Positions 7,917-56,257 of a stretch of DNA of 64,000 nt are shown here, one piece after another. The stretch comes from Candidatus Nomurabacteria bacterium (GTDB lineage Bacteria > Patescibacteriota > Minisyncoccia > Phycocordibacterales > UBA918): the NCBI GenBank assembly GCA_020632035.1, contig JACKGG010000002.1, positions 88,095 to 152,094 on the forward strand. The letters run 5' to 3'. Each line of letters opens with the position of its first letter. The stretch's first letter is position 1. The notes below the pieces were generated by a model that saw only the letters and a list, made by a program, of their open reading frames with translations, made no database searches and was not told the DNA's origin. The translations under genes were made by a program, and so were the position numbers.

Positions 7917-8193
7917 TGTAAGATACCTCTGACTAACTAATTTGTGATATACACGATATATGGGTTATAAAAAAAATACCCACTCCTGTTTCAACTACTG
8001 CTGGTTGTATGCGTGTACCCCACGCTGGACTATGGTGACAACCCCCGAAAAAGAACAATATTCTGCCTTTTATCATTAGGGTACGTCTACCAAATATGTC
8101 ATAACACTGTAAATCTTGGTATTTAAACATTTACGCCACCACTATGATTAAACGATCTGTATTACAGCATAAAGTATTATTCCGTTCAAGCCA

Positions 8194-8210
8194 GGAGCAG
8201 GCTCGGTCAC
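8194..8210. repeat. direct partial copy of the tRNA-Phe 3' segment (12 nt, GGAGCAGGCTCG) fused to GTCAC
   Basis: Matches the tRNA-Phe gene (antisense) at 8388-8399. The match stops inside the T-loop. It sits ~175 bp from the tRNA 3' end. Confidence 0.6.
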
Positions 8211-8312
8211 TCTCACGGCTATTTTCTTCGTAAACTCATAATATAGCTCGTTCCATTGACCTCCACTCGTCGCGTTCCTCGGCTCCGCCAGCGGACTTTA
8301 TCGCGACTCGGC

Positions 8313-8380
8313 TTCGAGCCTGCTTCCAAGCTACAAACGAAAACAGCCTATATGCGGAGCATATAGGCTGTACGTTTGTG
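8313..8380. repeat. inverted 19-nt copy of the tRNA-Phe 3' end (TTCGAGCCTGCTtCCAAGC) followed by a 48-nt perfect palindrome abutting the tRNA 3' end
   Basis: 8313-8331 reads in tRNA sense on the plus strand, opposite to the gene. The palindrome is TACAAACGAAAACAGCCTATATGC-GGAG-CATATAGGCTGTACGTTTGTG. Confidence 0.65.
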
Positions 8381-8451
8381 CTTGGGAGCAGGCTCGAACT
8401 GCTGACCCTTCGCTCTTCAGGCGAATGCTCTACCAACTGAGCTACCCAAGC
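8379..8451 (-). tRNA. tRNA-Phe (anticodon GAA)
   Basis: The reverse complement gives GCTTGGG-TA-GCTC-AGTTGGTA-GAGC-A-TTCGC-CTGAAGA-GCGAA-GGGTC-AGCAG-TTCGAGC-CTGCT-CCCAAGC-A. Confidence 0.85.
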
Positions 8452-8877: not shown

Positions 8878-8930
8878 GCCCCTTTAGTTAAATGGATATA
8901 ACCGCTCACTCAGAGCGGGCATTGTAGGCT
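8878..8930 (+). repeat. pseudo-tRNA: a copy of the 5' two-thirds of tRNA-Arg (acceptor, D-arm, anticodon arm with an altered loop, start of T-stem), followed by a 27-nt hairpin
   Basis: GCCCCTTTAGTTAAATGGATATAACCGCTCAC is identical to 9062-9093, then diverges. It lacks a T-arm and 3' acceptor. The hairpin CTGAAAAAG..CTTTTTCAG is at 8931-8957. Confidence 0.7.
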
Positions 8931-9061
8931 GAAAAAGACTGGGAGACTTTTTCAGAAGGTTAACTAGCATTTTATGACGTAAGGAAATAAAATGGTGATA
9001 ACCTATACTGATCTCGTAGAGATAGATTCCGTTGGAATCGAACCTATTGGTTACAATTGAA

Positions 9062-9136
9062 TACTTAAGCCCCTTTAGTTAAATGGATATAACCGCTCAC
9101 TCCTAACGAGCAGTTGTAGGTTCGATTCCTGCAGGG
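9062..9136 (+). tRNA. tRNA-Arg (anticodon CCT)
   Basis: GCCCCTT-TA-GTTA-AATGGATA-TAAC-C-GCTCA-CTCCTAA-CGAGC-AGTT-GTAGG-TTCGATT-CCTGC-AGGGGGC-A. There is one A·C mismatch at the base of the anticodon stem. Confidence 0.75.
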
Positions 9137-9340
9137 GGCACTAAAACACAACTCAACGGTCTTTGCGTTTTTCTTGTGTACCACAATCGTTTTGGTGCGC
9201 ACATCGTTCATGTACCCCTCGGGTGCTTGGCCGGGAAACATGCCAAGGCGCACTTTTTGGCGTAATCCTTGCTTGGTGTTCTCGGAAAGAGAATCGACAT
9301 AATATTTACTTTGTCCGAAAGCCATGCTCAACATGAACTT
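9137..9340 (-). pseudogene. remnant of a large serine recombinase (end of the catalytic domain through the start of the recombinase domain), truncated at the tRNA-Arg 3' end
   Basis: ..YYVDSLSENTKQGLRQKVRLGMFPGQAPEGY.. resembles the E-helix plus the G-x-x-P-x-GY start of the large-serine-recombinase 'recombinase' domain. The catalytic N-terminus and the C-terminal ~350 aa are missing. The open frame runs on into the tRNA. Confidence 0.4.
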
Positions 9341-9454
9341 TCTTATTGAAAGGGATTTTTGGTTTGCTTCGCCATTCATTACACAATACAAAAAGTACCA
9401 CATGTATCATGTAAACACTGAAAGCTATATCCCTGGAACGATATGTTGAAACAA

Positions 9455-21534: not shown

Positions 21535-21553
21535 CCTTGCGGGTGTTTTTTGT
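21525..21553 (-). terminator. intrinsic terminator at the rnpB 3' end
   Basis: AAAAAACACCC-TTGC-GGGTGTTTTTT. Confidence 0.6.
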
Positions 21554-21900
21554 ACACATAAGCCGGATTCTGTCAGGCCGAAGCCCGGATGATTATTTAC
21601 CTAGGATGTATATTGCTATACACCTCTTGCGACTCTCTTTGCCGGCTCAAAATCCCAGAAGGATATTGAGCCGGCAAAGCGCGGTCTTGCACGCAGGTAA
21701 GGATTTAGCCGTTTCACCCTCTTGGTTTCCCAAAAGGCTATTCCCGAAGGAACTCCTCAGCTTTCGCTTTGAACGTCTCTGCTCGCACCTCTTATACTGC
21801 TATACGACGGGTGTTACCCGCTACCATCCTCCACAAATAAATGTGGGCGTGTCCGGACTTTCCTCCTCGTATAAATACGAGGCAATCATCGTGTCTGTAC
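21552..21900 (-). ncRNA. rnpB: RNase P RNA (bacterial type), ~350 nt
   Basis: The minus strand carries a P3 hairpin CCTCGTATTTATACGAGG followed by P4 GAGGAAAGTCCGGAC. Near the 3' end it carries ACAGAATCCGGCTTATG (the P4'/P2' consensus ACAGAAUCCGGCUUA). Ends are approximate. Confidence 0.75.
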
Positions 21901-22300
21901 ATTATGCAATATTATTATAAAATTGCAACTTTAATATAAAAATAAAAGGACCCTAGTGGACTCTGCCGAGCATATTGCTACTCAGCGAGGCCCACGTTAG
22001 GGTACTTGACTTTTTCCTATGAGAAGTTGCGCTATTAAGCGTCATTCTCTTTAGCTGGCCAATAGGCTGCTTTTGTAGGGTTGTTTAGCTTGAATGCCGA
22101 TTCATAATTTTAATCAACGAACTGTCGGGTCATGACAGATCATGTTTTCCTCCCATTGTTGGTTGTTTTAAAAATGTCCTGCAGTTGCTAGTATATCGCT
22201 GGATTGAGCGAGCTAGTGGTTAAAACCCACCAGAACTTCAATTTCCCGCTCGAACTGCAGGAAAGGCATACTAGCATGTAATAGATAACTTGTCAACTAT

Positions 22301-28850: not shown

Positions 28851-29348
28851 TTAATCTAGATAACTATCAAAATACACTGCGTGGCAGGTGTAGCCACCTG
28901 GGTTCTTCTGGAGATAATCTTGGTGGAAATCTTCAGCTGGCCAAAATCTGGTGAGGGGTTCTAGAGTGGTCACAACCTCCCCGTCCCATCTCTCAGATTC
29001 ATTCACTATTTCTATCATTTCTTCAGCGATTTTTTTCTCCTCTTCGTTACTAAAAAATATTGCTGACCGATACGAAGTGCCTTTATCGTTCCCCTGTTGA
29101 TTAAGTGTAGTCGGATTGTGTATCTGAAAAAAGAAATCAAGTATGTGTCGGTAGTCGGTTAGTTCGTCATCATACTCTATCTCAACGGCTTCAGCGTGGC
29201 CTGGGTGATTTTCGTAGGTTGGATTGTCGTTTCTGCCTCCGGTGTAGCCGGCTTCGGTCGAGATAATGCCTGGTTGGGAGCGGATGAGGTCTTCGAGTCC
29301 CCAGAAGCATCCACCTGCTAGTACTGATTTTTTAATCATGAGTTGCAA
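28851..29348 (-). CDS. msrA: peptide methionine sulfoxide reductase MsrA
   Basis: GCFWG active-site motif near the N-terminus; typical length. Confidence 0.85.
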
Positions 29349-29818
29349 TTATAGATTTTCTTCTCTCTACGAGAGCTGTACACCTTGTCGCCATCTTACT
29401 TCGTAAACTCGTAAGATTGCTGGCAAGGTCTTGCGAAATGGGGCCCGTCCCATTTCTCACCCAGAAGCATCCACCTGCTAGTACTGATTTTTTAATCATG
29501 AGTTGCAATTATAGATTTTCTTCTCTCTACGAGAGCTGTACACCTTGTCGCCATCTTACTTCGTAAACTCGTAAGATTGCTGGCAAGGTCTTGCGAAATG
29601 GGGCCCGTCCCATTTCTCACCCAGAAGCATCCACCTGCTAGTACTGATTTTTTAATCATGAGTTGCAATTATAGATTTTCTTCTCTCTACGAGAGCTGTA
29701 CACCTTGTCGCCATCTTACTTCGTAAACTCGTAAGATTGCTGGCAAGGTCTTGCGAAATGGGGCCCGTCCCATTTCTCACCCAGAAGCATCCACCTGCTA
29801 GTACTGATTTTTTAATCA
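29300..29818. repeat. three perfect 160-bp tandem units plus a 38-bp partial unit. Each contains the msrA start region and a ~106-nt hairpin-rich element.
   Basis: Units begin at 29301, 29461 and 29621, with a partial at 29781. Each unit is the msrA first 13 codons + 5' flank, followed by the element TCTCTACGAGAGCTGTACACCTTGTCGCCATCTTACTTCGTAAACTCGTAAGATTGCTGGCAAGGTCTTGCG + GAAATGGGGCCCGTCCCATTTC + TCAC. Confidence 0.9.
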
Positions 29819-29821
29819 CAA

Positions 29822-30097
29822 CTAATCTTTTAGATGTTCTGCAAAATACTTTTTAATATTCTCAATATCATCCGCTTCCAATTTGTGCTTACTCGGGTTT
29901 GCCTCCAGCCAAGCCATAGCGGCATCAAATTCAAGCTGGCTGATGCCATACTCAATCCCTGGCTCATTGAGGTCTGCTCTAAATAACTTCTCTACTTCAA
30001 TCCTTTCTTCTTCATCCAACTTCCCATAAAGATTACTCATAATTTCCTTCATCTCTTCCTTCGTGACTCGCTTTGGAGTACTATCAAAAAAACCCAT
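29822..30097 (-). CDS. hypothetical small acidic protein (91 aa)
   Basis: ORF only. Confidence 0.3.
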   Translation of the reverse strand: MGFFDSTPKRVTKEEMKEIMSNLYGKLDEEERIEVEKLFRADLNEPGIEYGISQLEFDAAMAWLEANPSKHKLEADDIENIKKYFAEHLKD

Positions 30098-46677: not shown

Positions 46678-46877
46678 TATAACATCATATATTTATAATT
46701 ATAAACTGACCCCTACAGTTCTATAGCAGAGAAAAGGGCAGCTATAATAAAGAAAAGACTGAGTATAAAGCCAATTATTTTCTTATTGCAGAATGAGAAA
46801 GTCTAGGAGACTTATGAAGGCTTATTAAGGGTATTTTGAAGAATGAAAAATACCTAATGAGTGGACAGGTTCTGTAA

Positions 46878-46899
46878 GGACCGGAATCGAGTCACGAAT
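46878..46899. repeat. direct partial copy of the tRNA-CAT(47054..47124) T-arm (CCGGAATCGA) fused to GTCACGAAT
   Basis: Identical to 47063-47072 of the tRNA gene (antisense). The break falls in the T-loop. GTCACGAAT is the same 9-mer as at the tRNA-Gln locus. Confidence 0.55.
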
Positions 46900-46991
46900 C
46901 ACTAAGTATATTTATTCGGATTGCTCCAAATCTACAAGTGTTCTTGACCCCGCCTCAGCCTATTTCGTCTCCCAGACGAAGGCTTCCGGCC

Positions 46992-47050: not shown

Positions 47051-47053
47051 TTG

Positions 47054-47124
47054 TTGCGGGGCCCGGAATCGAACCGGGGTCTGGAGGTTATGAGCCTCCC
47101 GAGGTACCTCTCCTCTACCCCGCT
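47054..47124 (-). tRNA. tRNA with a CAT anticodon and an A1·A72 mismatch (initiator-like acceptor end; could also be Ile2)
   Basis: The reverse complement gives AGCGGGG-TA-GAGG-AGAGGTA-CCTC-G-GGAGG-CTCATAA-CCTCC-AGAC-CCCGG-TTCGATT-CCGGG-CCCCGCA-A. Position 1 A does not pair with 72 A. Confidence 0.7.
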
Positions 47125-47310
47125 ATGTATTTAACTTTACTTTTTCTGCAACGTTGGAGCAATCTCTCCTCATCTCTACGAGATCTGTACACCTTGTCGC
47201 CATTTTATTTCGTAAACTCACAAAATTGCTGGCAAGGTCTTGCGGAAGCGTCCCACGCTTCCTCACCCCGCTATGTATTTAACTTTACTTTTTCTGCAAC
47301 GTTGGAGTAC
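47117..47310. repeat. the same ~106-nt element as in the 29.3-kb array, flanked by a 43-bp perfect direct repeat that includes the first 8 nt of the tRNA-CAT 5' end
   Basis: DR CCCCGCTATGTATTTAACTTTACTTTTTCTGCAACGTTGGAG at 47117-47159 and 47266-47308. The element at 47161-47265 has the same 5' core as the 29-kb copy, then a different hairpin, GGAAGCGTCCCACGCTTCC, and the same TCAC end. Confidence 0.85.
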
Positions 47311-55325: not shown

Positions 55326-55465
55326 GTCCCGAGGACCGAATTGTTATTTTTGTCCCGAGGTCGGTCCTCGGGACAAACAGACCTCGGGCAAAGTGGCATT
55401 AGAGAACATCAGGACAAAGCTTCATCCTATGCCCCGCTATCCCGAGGTCCGACCTCGGGATAGGT
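55326..55465. repeat. cluster of REP-type palindromes (GTCCCGAGGtcgGtCCTCGGGAC family) 3' of the RAYT gene
   Basis: Copies or half-copies at 55326-38, 55352-75, 55376-88 and 55438-65. Confidence 0.8.
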
Positions 55466-56130
55466 TTGCGCTTGAGTAGTCAAGCCAATGAGTGATCTGA
55501 TCATTGAAAGAATTTTCCTCCAGAAAGTATTGAGGAAAACTATCTTTAGAGAGAACATTAGACACAACTCTATTCACTCCCTGATAATCAAGGTAGCTTG
55601 AATATTTATATTCCTGCAAGTGTTTCAAAGCTTCATTTCTATTTTTAATACCAGTCTCTTTCCACTCTGGCTCAATTAATTTGATTGGATTTAGATGAAT
55701 GTACGAAAATAAATATTTTAGATATTCATCTGTATCAGCTCGCTTAGCTTTGTATCTACCTTCAAATAAGACACCTGTGCGATCATGTTTCTTATTAAAG
55801 TACATGGAGTATCCAGTTGAAAGTTTTTTCATAAACTGACTAATTCCTCCTTCGTTTACTTCTTTTATTAAAATATGAAAATGATTGGGCATTAATACGT
55901 AAGCACCAATGTCAACAAGGACCTTATTTCTATCAATTAAAAATAAATCGTCATATTTTTTACCTGCTTTATATTCATCCTTTATTGAAACAGGATTTGT
56001 ACTGTTGCATAAATACAGCAATGCCATAAAACGGTCATAGTCTGACTTTGTTTTGTATATTACCCTTTTCTCTGTACCTCGATTATAAATGTGGTAATAC
56101 TCATCGACAGCAATAGAGTTATCTTTCAAC
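55437..56130 (-). mobile_element. REP-associated tyrosine transposase (RAYT, IS200/IS605-like Y1 HuH transposase). The start is probably the internal Met (MLKDNS..), because the upstream part of the ORF reads through a REP palindrome.
   Basis: YHIYNRG, HuH motif MPNHFHILI, and a catalytic-Tyr region (RYKAKRADTDEYLKYLFSYIHLNP). REP palindromes flank it on both sides. Confidence 0.7.
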
Positions 56131-56149
56131 ATACAATTAATATACCACA

Positions 56150-56257
56150 CTGTCCCGAGGACCGACCTCGGGACAGATAAACATTTACTTACAAACAACA
56201 CAAAAAGTGGCCAGAAAGCGCTTTTTGATATTGTCCCGAGGTCGGACCTCGGGACAG
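56150..56257. repeat. two REP palindromes 5' of the RAYT gene
   Basis: CTGTCCCGAGGACCGACCTCGGGACAG (56150-77) and TTGTCCCGAGGTCGGACCTCGGGACAG (56231-57). Confidence 0.8.

Follow-up and report, generated by a model that had tools for sequence, protein, structure and literature searches.

The 160-bp repeat array at msrA, in the 64,000-nt stretch of a Candidatus Nomurabacteria genome analysed here (the window), is probably the tandem amplification of one insertion of a non-autonomous, interspersed structured element. The element was inserted directly after a G-run at msrA nt 38-40, and with it the 39 bp that separate the start codon from this site were duplicated as a direct repeat. As a result of this duplication, msrA remains complete on the downstream side of the element, and the copy left beside ORF91 forms a pseudo-start of 13 codons. 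Comparison with other genomes gives good support to the view that the element is a member of a mobile, multi-copy interspersed family common in tiny-genome Parcubacteria.

Structure of the Array at msrA

Tandem Repeats Finder detected a repeat at 29300-29818 with a period of 160, 3.2 copies, 100% matches and zero indels, and repeat finding gave three 199-nt copies in register at a spacing of 160 nt. The array thus consists of 3.24 perfect 160-bp units, which confirmed a preliminary description of three perfect units. That description had placed a copy of the msrA start region in each unit, and the first 13 msrA codons were indeed included in every one. The unit itself is best divided into a 39-bp segment that repeats msrA nt 2-40 and an insert of 121 nt, the element, with three hairpins (hp1 to hp3). 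Four copies of the 39-bp segment (29300-29338, 29460-29498, 29620-29658 and 29780-29818) alternate with the inserts. The features are as follows.

28851-29339, minus strand: msrA, intact coding sequence, 162 aa, PMSR domain (ORF list and exact-protein look-up with Pfam PMSR)
29300-29338, minus strand: T1, 39-bp target copy, msrA nt 2-40, within the functional gene
29339-29459, plus strand: element copy 1, 121 nt, "E+" orientation, ending ...TCTCA
29363-29375, within element copy 1: hp1
29382-29429, within element copy 1: hp2, loop UUCGUAAACUC
29435-29456, within element copy 1: hp3
29460-29498, minus strand: T2, pseudo-start copy of msrA nt 2-40
29499-29619, plus strand: element copy 2, identical to copy 1
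29620-29658, minus strand: T3, msrA pseudo-start copy
29659-29779, plus strand: element copy 3, identical to copy 1
29780-29819, minus strand: T4 and the G of GTG, ancestral msrA start, 2 nt past the ORF91 stop
29822-30097, minus strand: ORF91, conserved upstream partner of msrA

T1 falls within the first 40 nt of msrA, whose homologues in Kaiserbacteria/Parcubacteria showed 87% identity, and ends with TTCTGGG in the GCFWG codons. The ATG of T2 is completed by the last base of the element. A change of CATG to CACA at 29816-29819 had been attributed to a mutated last partial unit. On the gene strand, however, the ORF91 stop TAG (29824-22) is followed by TT and GTG (29819-17). CACA is thus the junction with native upstream DNA and not a mutation, and relatives share this tight ORF91-msrA junction.

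Conserved Hairpins of the Element

Three hairpins had been described in the element, and their existence was supported by both folding and covariation. Folding gave z = -3.9 for the plus strand and -3.7 for the minus strand. In 111 distinct homologues, 94.6% of cells were paired and double-sided changes were found in 29 of 30 pairs; the covariation score was 0.536, compared with 0.150 for shuffles and 0.05-0.09 for slid controls. Compensatory changes were already visible in a three-sequence comparison of element copies. These results indicate that all three hairpins covary strongly and that, judging from the aligned copies, the structure is under selection.

Neither wobble-pair counts nor folding energies picked one strand for a putative RNA, as both strands fold equally well. 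One hp2 pair showed a conserved U.G wobble on the E+ strand, present in 93 of 111 copies, whereas counts outside this pair favoured the opposite strand (78 A.C vs 45 G.U). The hp3 loop was also considered for target recognition, through pairing of UCCCA with TGGGR, and was rejected because a G-run also precedes copies whose loop sequence is unrelated.

Empty Site and Unit Number

The empty site was found in L011, L010 and L007, in which the stop of the ORF91 orthologue is followed by 7-9 nt and the msrA ATG, with no element. ORF91 was 76% identical to its orthologue in L011, and the T4 junction of the window matched all three empty sites. A simple tandem duplication of an ancestral intergenic region was rejected because the relatives have no spacer at this place and, in the window, the ORF91 stop is directly adjoined by the distal fragment of msrA.

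The count of three units at msrA rests on short-read assembly, which does not resolve how many 160-bp units are present. Among other contigs of this species, three independent ones (L001-L003) had one unit each, and a fourth (L004) enters a second element copy and ends there, giving at least two units. Several contigs break at the repeat, and the neighbouring tRNA-Val array likewise differs in unit number between assemblies. The single units in L001-L003, the contig breaks and the tRNA-Val array, together with the 100% identity of the units, would be in line with the count of three being an assembly artefact in which a de Bruijn loop was traversed an arbitrary number of times. We consider this possible but doubtful, because L004 independently needs at least two units, the insertion itself (target copy, element, target copy; [T][E][T]) is present in all same-species assemblies, and homologous arrays elsewhere carry substitutions between units. 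The array in L006 (period 155, 99% identity) has such substitutions, which a collapsed assembly loop cannot yield, so this array is real. The array in L019 has 2 units.

The array probably arose by slippage between units. We propose that [T][E][T] would expand and contract by slipped-strand or unequal recombination between its direct repeats, leading to the 3-unit array here and to one or at least two units elsewhere, and keeping the T copies identical.

Distribution and Targets of the Element Family

The family was searched by a pattern scan, with the pattern built on the base of hp2, and by a covariance model. The strict pattern found 91 loci in Parcubacteria MAGs and the covariance model found 114 copies in these loci. 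With nhmmer, 115 of 138 hits were full length, and the partial hits missed only the sequence-variable hp3. The element is non-coding and ~105-150 nt long, its ORFs being limited to read-through pseudo-ORFs, and within the window its density was ~1 copy per 10-15 kb.

An already-catalogued repeat family, which had been raised as a possible origin, was not found in any of the sources searched. Rfam gave no match at the gathering score anywhere on the element, and at E <= 10 the sole match in 29200-29900 was a chance FTX_2 outside the element core. The hp2-base pattern had zero matches among viral contigs, blastn against phage records did not find the element, and literature searches returned no description of the family. 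A first pattern, CTACGAGANCNGTAYANNTTRTCNCCAT, had zero matches in genome contigs or in metagenome contigs.

The recurrent targets were the 5' parts of msrA, tRNAs, 5S rRNA and P-loop kinase genes; those read beyond the window comprised tRNA-Cys, -Pro, -Glu and -Ser, 5S rRNA, and the N-termini of P-loop kinase and GH1 genes. A tRNA gene lay within 200 nt of 29 of the 114 copies. The site at msrA nt ~40 was also targeted in L006, L023, L038 and L077, and L006 has a further copy at the msrA 3' end with a duplication of 33-34 bp. One sense copy lies ~90 nt downstream of a helicase stop codon, and only 2 of 109 copies were inside long ORFs. At many unrelated targets the same architecture was seen: a gene 5' fragment, G|TGAG-hp3-hp2-hp1, an A/T-rich end and the intact gene.

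A mobile or recombinogenic module, a cis-regulatory msrA leader and a small RNA gene had been suggested earlier. The first is well supported by the interspersed copies, by their own flanking duplications at unrelated sites and by the empty msrA site in relatives. A private msrA leader or riboswitch is ruled out, because the identical element family also sits at tRNA, 5S rRNA and other unrelated genes.

Other Copies in the Window

Two further loci and one weak family member were found in the window.

8878-8929, plus strand: pseudo 5' part of tRNA-Arg, nt 1-34 identical to the gene
8922-9068, minus strand: third locus, element copy with compensatory changes in hp2 and hp3, diverged, 102 bits
46788-46884, minus strand: weak, diverged family member, 28 bits, E = 4e-4
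47117-47159, minus strand: 43-bp target copy joined to tRNA-Met (47053-47124)
47160-47264, plus strand: second locus, element copy, 117 bits, before initiator tRNA-Met
47265-47307, minus strand: second, identical copy of the 43-bp target on the distal side, a pseudo 5' end of tRNA-Met

At tRNA-Met, the 43-bp target copy consists of 35 nt of upstream sequence and tRNA nt 1-8 (AGCGGGGT). At the third locus, the element lies between the pseudo 5' part and the real tRNA-Arg (9069-9141), with a flanking duplication of ~34-52 bp (34 identical nt). The anticodon-loop region of this pseudo copy is altered and is followed by TTGTAGG and the element. In the pseudo copies of both tRNA-Arg and tRNA-Cys, the element-proximal part was far more diverged than the remainder, which is not predicted by duplication and uniform decay.

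The tRNA-Met copies are orthologous in six species, with a common upstream gene and 71-89% mutual identity (most pairs at least 74%), and they retain their hairpins through compensatory changes. Such conservation would fit a host function, or else gene conversion in which active copies act as donors. Because duplications have stayed perfect at insertions of this age, the T copies must evolve in concert, and a "target duplication" without mismatches does not prove that a staggered cut was made recently.

Ends of the Element and Flanking Duplications

Exact flanking direct repeats of at least 15 nt were found at 26 of 109 copies (24%) compared with 0.49% of 2260 matched control positions, and those of at least 30 nt at 12 copies compared with 0.13% of controls. 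At three quarters of copies a flanking duplication was undetectable. Duplication lengths varied from 15 to 52 bp and were mostly 33-43 bp.

The two ends of the element differ. At the foot of hp3, TGAG was present in 97 of 105 copies, and of 89 distinct copies, 88 had G as the preceding base (G|TGAG). This end shares microhomology of 1-6 nt with the target, which often reads GGGGT or GGGGTG where the element starts with TGAG. The far end is not conserved and ranges in length from 9 to > 120 nt. No terminal inverted repeats were seen across the ends read in ~100 copies; all that was noted was a chance 4-nt match, TGAG/CTCA, in the msrA copy. At protein-gene targets, microhomology at the second junction was ATG or ATGAT, with GG(T) at the other junction. 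In L023 the actual start, ATGTTG, is supplied by the element, and the 3' copy in L006 has an ATG that is absent from its target. We also considered a rule in which the duplication starts at the transcription start. This fits tRNA-Met, L023 and L034 but fails at operonic targets (the window, L006, L048) and at L084, where the -10 region is duplicated too.

For target duplications of ~40 bases without inverted ends, no described bacterial element offers a match. Integration through a long, variable staggered break or through microhomology-primed copying would generate the 15-52 bp duplications. Only insertions whose duplication restores the gene would survive, and the variable end of the element would assist through a -10-like box that points outward and, in many cases, an ATG; such a filter would leave copies at gene 5' edges or between genes.

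Since the hp3 end is sharp, with target microhomology and a nearly invariant G at -1, and the opposite end is variable, we considered RNA-mediated, SINE-like retroposition. An E+ transcript would end past hp3 in ...CUCAC(C), a nicked target ...GG(G) would anneal to it and prime reverse transcription, and a second nick 15-52 nt off would give the variable duplication. The variable far end would reflect variable RNA 5' ends or carried-over donor flank. The variable duplication length, the absence of inverted ends, the conserved E+ U.G wobble in hp2 and the occasional resemblance of the variable end to a donor gene start (L023, L006 3' copy) are consistent with this. However, there is no A-tail and no 5'-truncation series, nearly all matches being full length; the remaining wobbles favour the other strand; and no reverse transcriptase or endonuclease gene lies near any copy examined. 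To our knowledge, no LINE-like retrotransposition is known in bacteria. We regard retroposition as unlikely.

DNA transposition by a trans-acting enzyme, making long, loosely measured staggered cuts as in IS1549/IS1634 and aimed at a G-run adjacent to the hp3 end, is equally improbable. Long variable direct repeats are documented for IS1549 and IS1634, nearly all copies of the element are compact full-length units, and the duplications cluster at ~33-43 bp. Against this, the far end is unconserved, terminal inverted repeats are absent, and no transposase gene and no longer autonomous relative was seen in 640 kb of loci.

Search for a Mobilising Enzyme

The neighbourhood search covered 8-kb loci around the copies. 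No transposase, integrase or reverse transcriptase was present beside any copy in ~640 kb of loci and the window. Clustering of 666 neighbouring ORFs gave only housekeeping/syntenic genes with no recurrent neighbour, and a search for an autonomous partner through duplications 0.2-6 kb apart gave only such genes and arrays. Pfam scans of 20 window ORFs found no mobilising enzyme. The ORF at 9065-9403 beside tRNA-Arg, which looked recombinase-like by eye, was rejected because it had no Pfam or PDB match. As no mobilising enzyme gene lies beside the copies, we infer the mobility of the element from its architecture only.

We also weighed spread that needs no dedicated enzyme, in which the element and its flank would be copied into new sites either by fork-stall microhomology template switching or by homology-facilitated illegitimate recombination after DNA uptake. 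Homologous recombination would then carry them from one species to the orthologous sites of its relatives. Microhomology at both junctions (ATG/ATGAT at protein-gene targets) and the filling of identical sites in many species are in line with this, and the differences between pseudo-start and real start, in L023 as in the window, fall precisely at the positions expected to distinguish donor from resident sequence. The window also encodes type IV pilus/secretion ATPases (T2SSE, T2SSF), which are compatible with competence. On the other hand, at least 12 unrelated target types and > 100 structure-selected copies are hard to reach through rare double template switches, and the near-invariant G|TGAG end implies specific recognition. 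Such spread appears very unlikely.

A new class of bacterial mobile element is a tentative possibility. It would be a small structured RNA/DNA module that integrates beside a G-run through target-primed (retro-)copying, or through some other mechanism leading to a break with a stagger of ~40 bp. Since it would duplicate the 5' end of the gene it enters and provide a promoter, it could settle in essential genes of Parcubacteria (initiator tRNA, 5S rRNA, msrA) without lethal effect.

Promoter-Like Box and Possible Host Function

The variable A/T-rich end contains ATTATA at 29348-53; read on the gene strand this is TATAAT, and 8 nt separate it from the ATG. Such a box occurs at this position in each unit, similar boxes precede the tRNA copies, and the box is compatible with a putative outward promoter. 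A consensus promoter scan of 29250-29900 called no sigma-70-type promoter and no terminator.

We asked whether the element is primarily a host module, that is, a small RNA gene or a promoter/insulator cassette, with the array tuning msrA by copy number. This reading is compatible with a mobile origin, and the two are not mutually exclusive. The compensatory evolution among orthologous tRNA-Met copies, the TATAAT-like boxes and the difference in copy number among assemblies are consistent with it. In addition, each pseudo-ORF terminates at a TAA that overlaps the following ATG, so that translational coupling from ORF91 could persist. However, the targets (msrA, tRNAs, 5S rRNA, kinases, the site downstream of the helicase) have no functional theme, orientation relative to neighbouring genes was near random overall (31 vs 23), no promoter or terminator was called, and the open frame through the element is lost in L006. 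A primary role as a host module is thus not probable.

Comparison with Known Systems

REP/BIME/REPIN sequences are mobilised by RAYT, an HUH Y1 transposase. The element resembles them in being short, hairpin-forming, non-coding, multi-copy and mostly intergenic, without an enzyme beside most copies, and in persisting vertically with conserved structure. Nevertheless, REPs are single palindromes of ~20-40 nt, often in inverted pairs, with no target duplication, whereas the element has three distinct hairpins in ~105 nt and a variable end, long duplications and insertions at gene 5' ends. No RAYT was seen in the loci read around copies. Bacterial MITEs (Correia/NEMIS, RUP, ERIC, Nezha) are likewise non-autonomous, interspersed, 100-200 nt long and near or inside genes, and may carry outward promoters. 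Their terminal inverted repeats match a parent IS and their duplications are fixed at 2-10 bp. The element departs from MITEs on both counts, with no inverted ends, one variable end and 15-52 bp duplications, and no transposase or long-range duplication pair that could mark a parent IS was found in the 8-kb loci around copies.

Long variable direct repeats of 8-514 bp, for which there is no mechanistic model, have been reported on insertion of IS1549/IS1634 (PMC2266710). The element shares such repeats with the IS1634 family; however, those elements are autonomous, 1.5-2 kb long, with a DDE transposase and inverted ends, whereas the element is ~0.1 kb, non-coding and has neither. Like eukaryotic SINEs, which are mobilised by target-primed reverse transcription of LINEs, it is small and non-coding, with a defined end that could anneal to a nicked target and a variable other end, and it shares with SINEs variable target duplications, possible carry-over of flanking sequence and association with tRNA genes. 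Unlike eukaryotic SINEs, it showed no A-tail, internal promoter, 5'-truncation series or partner reverse transcriptase.

The array resembles MIRU-type mycobacterial VNTRs in consisting of tandem units between operon genes, with small ORFs overlapping the stop and start codons of neighbours. MIRU units are 50-160 bp long and vary in number among strains, as the units here may do. MIRUs, however, are not composed of an interspersed structured element and a duplicated gene start. Integrative elements at tRNA genes and Cas1-Cas2 also duplicate 30-50 bp of target and regenerate the gene or repeat, so that several rounds build up [repeat][insert][repeat] arrays. The att sequence used by integrases is fixed and carried on the element, and Cas1-Cas2 duplicates a fixed repeat beside a leader, whereas here the duplicated sequence differs per site and the insert is constant. 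A group I/II intron or self-cleaving ribozyme was rejected because there was no Rfam match, ~105 nt is too small and the target is duplicated. Any likeness of the G|GUGAG end to a 5' splice site is superficial.

Genomes of candidate-phyla-radiation bacteria are thought to be small, streamlined and poor in mobile DNA. The present family occupies the 5' ends of housekeeping, tRNA and 5S rRNA genes, and dozens of genomes of Parcubacteria carry it. Should it transpose, its signature (30-50 bp duplications, G|TGAG, no inverted ends) is explained by no described bacterial element, and the responsible enzyme would represent a new integration activity. The family also breaks short-read assemblies, and its pseudo-starts and pseudo-tRNA fragments mislead gene callers. 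Its variable-number arrays could act as strain markers, and a covariance model is now available for an RNA/DNA structure missing from Rfam.

The msrA array consists of alternating target and element copies

Perfect tandem 160-bp units had been described at msrA, and this was borne out: the unit is repeated head to tail in 3.24 in-register copies, with zero mismatches in this assembly. The features are as follows.

28851-29339, minus strand: msrA, 162 aa, PMSR domain
29300-29818: array of 160-bp units
29819-29817, minus strand: GTG codon, after the ORF91 stop TAG and TT
29824-29822, minus strand (gene direction): stop codon TAG of ORF91, the conserved gene upstream of msrA, then TT

In the gene direction, the GTG is followed by three repeats of a 39-nt msrA segment plus a 121-nt insert, after which the same 39 nt continues as the remainder of msrA. 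As assembled, the array therefore alternates four copies of a 39-bp target with three identical copies of an element. The GTG two bases past the ORF91 stop is the former msrA start codon, and the distal CACA, previously read as a mutated unit, is instead the native junction with upstream DNA. Each pseudo-start (29332-29819, minus strand) opens a 55-58-aa ORF through the element, and its TAA stop overlaps the next ATG (ATGATTAA). Owing to this overlap, translational coupling of ORF91 and msrA could outlast insertion. The same frame is closed in L006, an msrA locus of a different species, and given this, the open frame in the window may be chance.

Related species retain an empty site

Homologues of msrA put the window within Patescibacteria, among Candidatus Kaiserbacteria and Parcubacteria. 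Contigs of the same species in other assemblies were identified by exact-protein look-up. Target-element-target was present once in each of three of them (L001-L003). In the fourth (L004), the second target runs into a further element copy in which the contig ends, indicating at least two units in an independent sample. In five loci of related species (L007-L011), the ORF91 orthologue (76% identity in L011) is followed 7-9 nt on by the msrA ATG, and the element is absent. This junction is the empty site, and it confirms that the element and one target copy were added to an ancestrally tight ORF91-msrA junction.

The element belongs to a structured, interspersed family

A repeat search detected a 75-nt core at 47173-47247, 91% identical to the msrA-array insert, and a reverse-complement relative at 8969-9023. 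The window holds the following further copies.

47160-47264: element at initiator tRNA-Met, with a perfect 43-bp direct repeat on both sides (47117-47159, 47265-47307)
8922-9068: element at tRNA-Arg, between a pseudo 5' part and the intact tRNA-Arg
46788-46884, opposite orientation: weak, diverged member of the family scoring 28 bits, in the galU/tRNA-Met spacer

The 43-bp repeat comprises 35 nt of upstream sequence and the first 8 nt of initiator tRNA-Met; in the pseudo tRNA-Arg (8878-8929), nt 1-34 are identical to the gene. When the msrA, tRNA-Met and tRNA-Arg copies are aligned, compensatory changes appear in two of the element's three hairpins (hp1-hp3), namely hp2 and hp3. A covariance model, R1, was built from these three copies and recovered them, together with the weak fourth locus at 46788-46884. 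Near the latter, a separate hp3-like hairpin (TTTCGTCTCCCAGACGAA, 46964-46985) is followed by T-arm-like sequence. Beside tRNA-Phe (8378-8451), two extra partial copies of its 3' end, one direct and one inverted, lie within 8190-8330 and bracket a degenerate stretch with the hp2 loop motif TTCGTAAACTC; from its sequence, this region looks like an old, decayed insertion on the tRNA-Phe 3' side. The ORF at 9065-9403 (minus strand, 112 aa), which overlaps tRNA-Arg, appeared recombinase-like by eye and was set aside, with no Pfam or PDB sequence match.

A first strict pattern gave no matches in two collections, of genome contigs and metagenome contigs. A pattern on the hp2 base gave 91 stretches in the genome contigs, all but a few named Kaiser-, Nomura-, Zambryski-, Yonath-, Pacei- or Parcubacteria. 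Since the family was collected with this single strict pattern, the hp2 base appears more conserved than it is. A search of 80 of the 91 loci, L006 and the window with R1 yielded 114 copies. Among 111 distinct sequences, in an alignment fitted to R1, standard pairs occupied 94.6% of cells, both-sided changes occurred at 29 of 30 pairs, and the covariation score was 0.536, compared with 0.150 for shuffles and 0.05-0.09 for slid partners. Both strands folded far better than shuffles. These results show that the element is interspersed and under structural constraint. At one hp2 pair, 93 of 111 copies have a U.G wobble on the strand read from hp1 towards hp3, whereas the remaining wobble-type cells favour the opposite strand (78 vs 45). 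These opposed signals do not single out either strand as the functional one. Since orthologous copies show compensatory evolution, the element may also serve the host, for example as a putative outward promoter or small RNA, although a consensus scan of the msrA array called neither promoter nor terminator.

Insertions carry long flanking duplications and one defined end

Flanks of real copies were compared, with identical geometry, with those of 2260 control positions drawn at random from these loci. Exact flank repeats of at least 15 nt were found at 26 of 109 copies (24%) and 0.49% of controls, and those of at least 30 nt at 12 of 109 (11%) and 0.13%. Long duplications are thus far above chance, and at well-preserved sites they measure 25-52 bp, mostly 33-43 bp. 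We suggest that integration itself would generate them. An IS1549/IS1634-type transposase is a possible agent, as it would produce long variable repeats (PMC2266710), but the element lacks inverted ends and no such partner was seen in the loci around copies.

On the gene-sense strand, TGAG at the foot of hp3 opens the element in 97 of 105 copies. Of 89 distinct copies, 88 have G immediately before it and 63 have G at -2, so the G|TGAG junction is near-invariant. At half of the well-preserved sites the target sequence goes on with T or TG, giving 1-3 more bases common to target and element end. The opposite end, after hp1, is A/T-rich and variable in length, and has -10-like boxes. At protein-gene targets it usually finishes in ATG. 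In L023, another msrA locus, the element provides the present start (ATGTTG), and the copy at the 3' end of msrA in L006 has an ATG where the target has none. One possible route is target-primed reverse transcription of an RNA whose end lies just beyond hp3. This fits an end that is defined and shares microhomology with the target, a far end and a duplication that both vary, and flanking sequence that is carried over. However, truncated copies are absent, and no reverse transcriptase was found in the loci around copies.

In the pseudo-tRNA copies (window 8878-8929; L040, before tRNA-Cys), the first 32-37 nt match the gene and the anticodon-loop region, on the element side, is heavily altered. 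Simple decay does not explain this non-uniform divergence.

The same targets are occupied recurrently

The msrA site at nt ~40 (TGG-GG of the catalytic GCFWG motif) is filled in the window, L006, L023, L038 and L077, and nt 8 of initiator tRNA-Met in the window, L019, L045, L052, L053 and L031. Because the upstream gene is the same in all six, the tRNA-Met insertion is an old, orthologous one. Pairwise identity among its element copies is 71-89% (most pairs at least 74%); two species retain a perfect duplication, whereas it has decayed in the rest. The element is also found at tRNA-Arg, -Cys, -Pro, -Glu, -Ser and -Thr, at 5S rRNA (Rfam-confirmed in L070), and at the N-termini of two P-loop kinases and one GH1 protein. 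A tRNA gene lies within 200 nt of 29 of 114 copies, and only 2 of 109 are embedded in a long ORF. A third possible mechanism is template switching without an enzyme, or illegitimate recombination facilitated by homology. It fits the microhomologies and the spread among orthologous sites, but is at odds with how many targets there are and with the selected structure.

With respect to neighbouring genes, copies as a whole were oriented almost at random (31 vs 23). The consistent orientation at gene 5' ends is therefore best explained by the survival of those insertions in which the variable end points towards the restored gene; selection would retain only insertions that restore the gene. A subfamily (L025, L013, L046, L063, L021, L061 and others) carries one more hairpin, of 5 bp (ACCTC..GAGGT), which overlaps the GGTGAG end. 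In both loci examined, L046 and L061, it lies in sense orientation ~90 nt past a gene stop codon, in L046 downstream of a DEAD-box helicase.

Arrays arise repeatedly

L006 has msrB, not ORF91, upstream of msrA, and its own array at the same msrA position. Two units occur at tRNA-Met in L019.

L006, 9442-10040 and 10452-10622: array and 3' copy
L006 array, first: older pseudo-start, differing at 3 of 40 positions
L006 array, second: element abutted by an element of another subfamily, no target copy between
L006 array, third: 2.5 units of 155 bp, 99% identity, substitutions between units
1312-1751, 1752-1825, 1846-1904: tRNA-Val region, with a second perfect tandem array, 110 nt x4, directly before tRNA-Val

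The element at the L006 msrA 3' end has a 33-34-bp duplication and provides the last codon and stop. Each tRNA-Val unit contains tRNA-Val nt 1-22, a hairpin (GGTGAATAAGTCCCCCAGACTAATTCACC) in place of the anticodon-loop region, tRNA nt 37-48 and an extended -10 box (GTGTAGAAT); the hairpin resembles the G|GTGA-hp3 end of the element, and the unit opens with this element-like GGTGA-hairpin. One further fragment lies downstream of tRNA-Val. In two other assemblies of the species the unit number is different: L111 has two fewer units, and L110 also differs. Arrays are a regular by-product of the target-element-target architecture. They can be accounted for by slipped-strand or unequal recombination between direct repeats, as can the concerted evolution by which target copies are identical at old insertions. 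Slippage would amplify the retained insertions.

Comparison with known repeats

The preliminary description had considered an already-catalogued repeat family, and we found no match in Rfam, phage records or viral contigs and no description in the literature searched. In size and genomic habit the family is similar to small repeats of the REP/MITE type, but it departs from their defining features: it has no terminal inverted repeats, and its duplications are neither short nor of fixed length. A different hairpin repeat family is present at 55341-56257, where a 254-aa ORF (55437-56201) is flanked by a perfect GC-rich palindrome in four copies (TGTCCCGAGGTCGGTCCTCGGGACA). The window also contains RNase P RNA class A at 21547-21901, scoring 106.4 bits, barely above the Rfam gathering score of 100.
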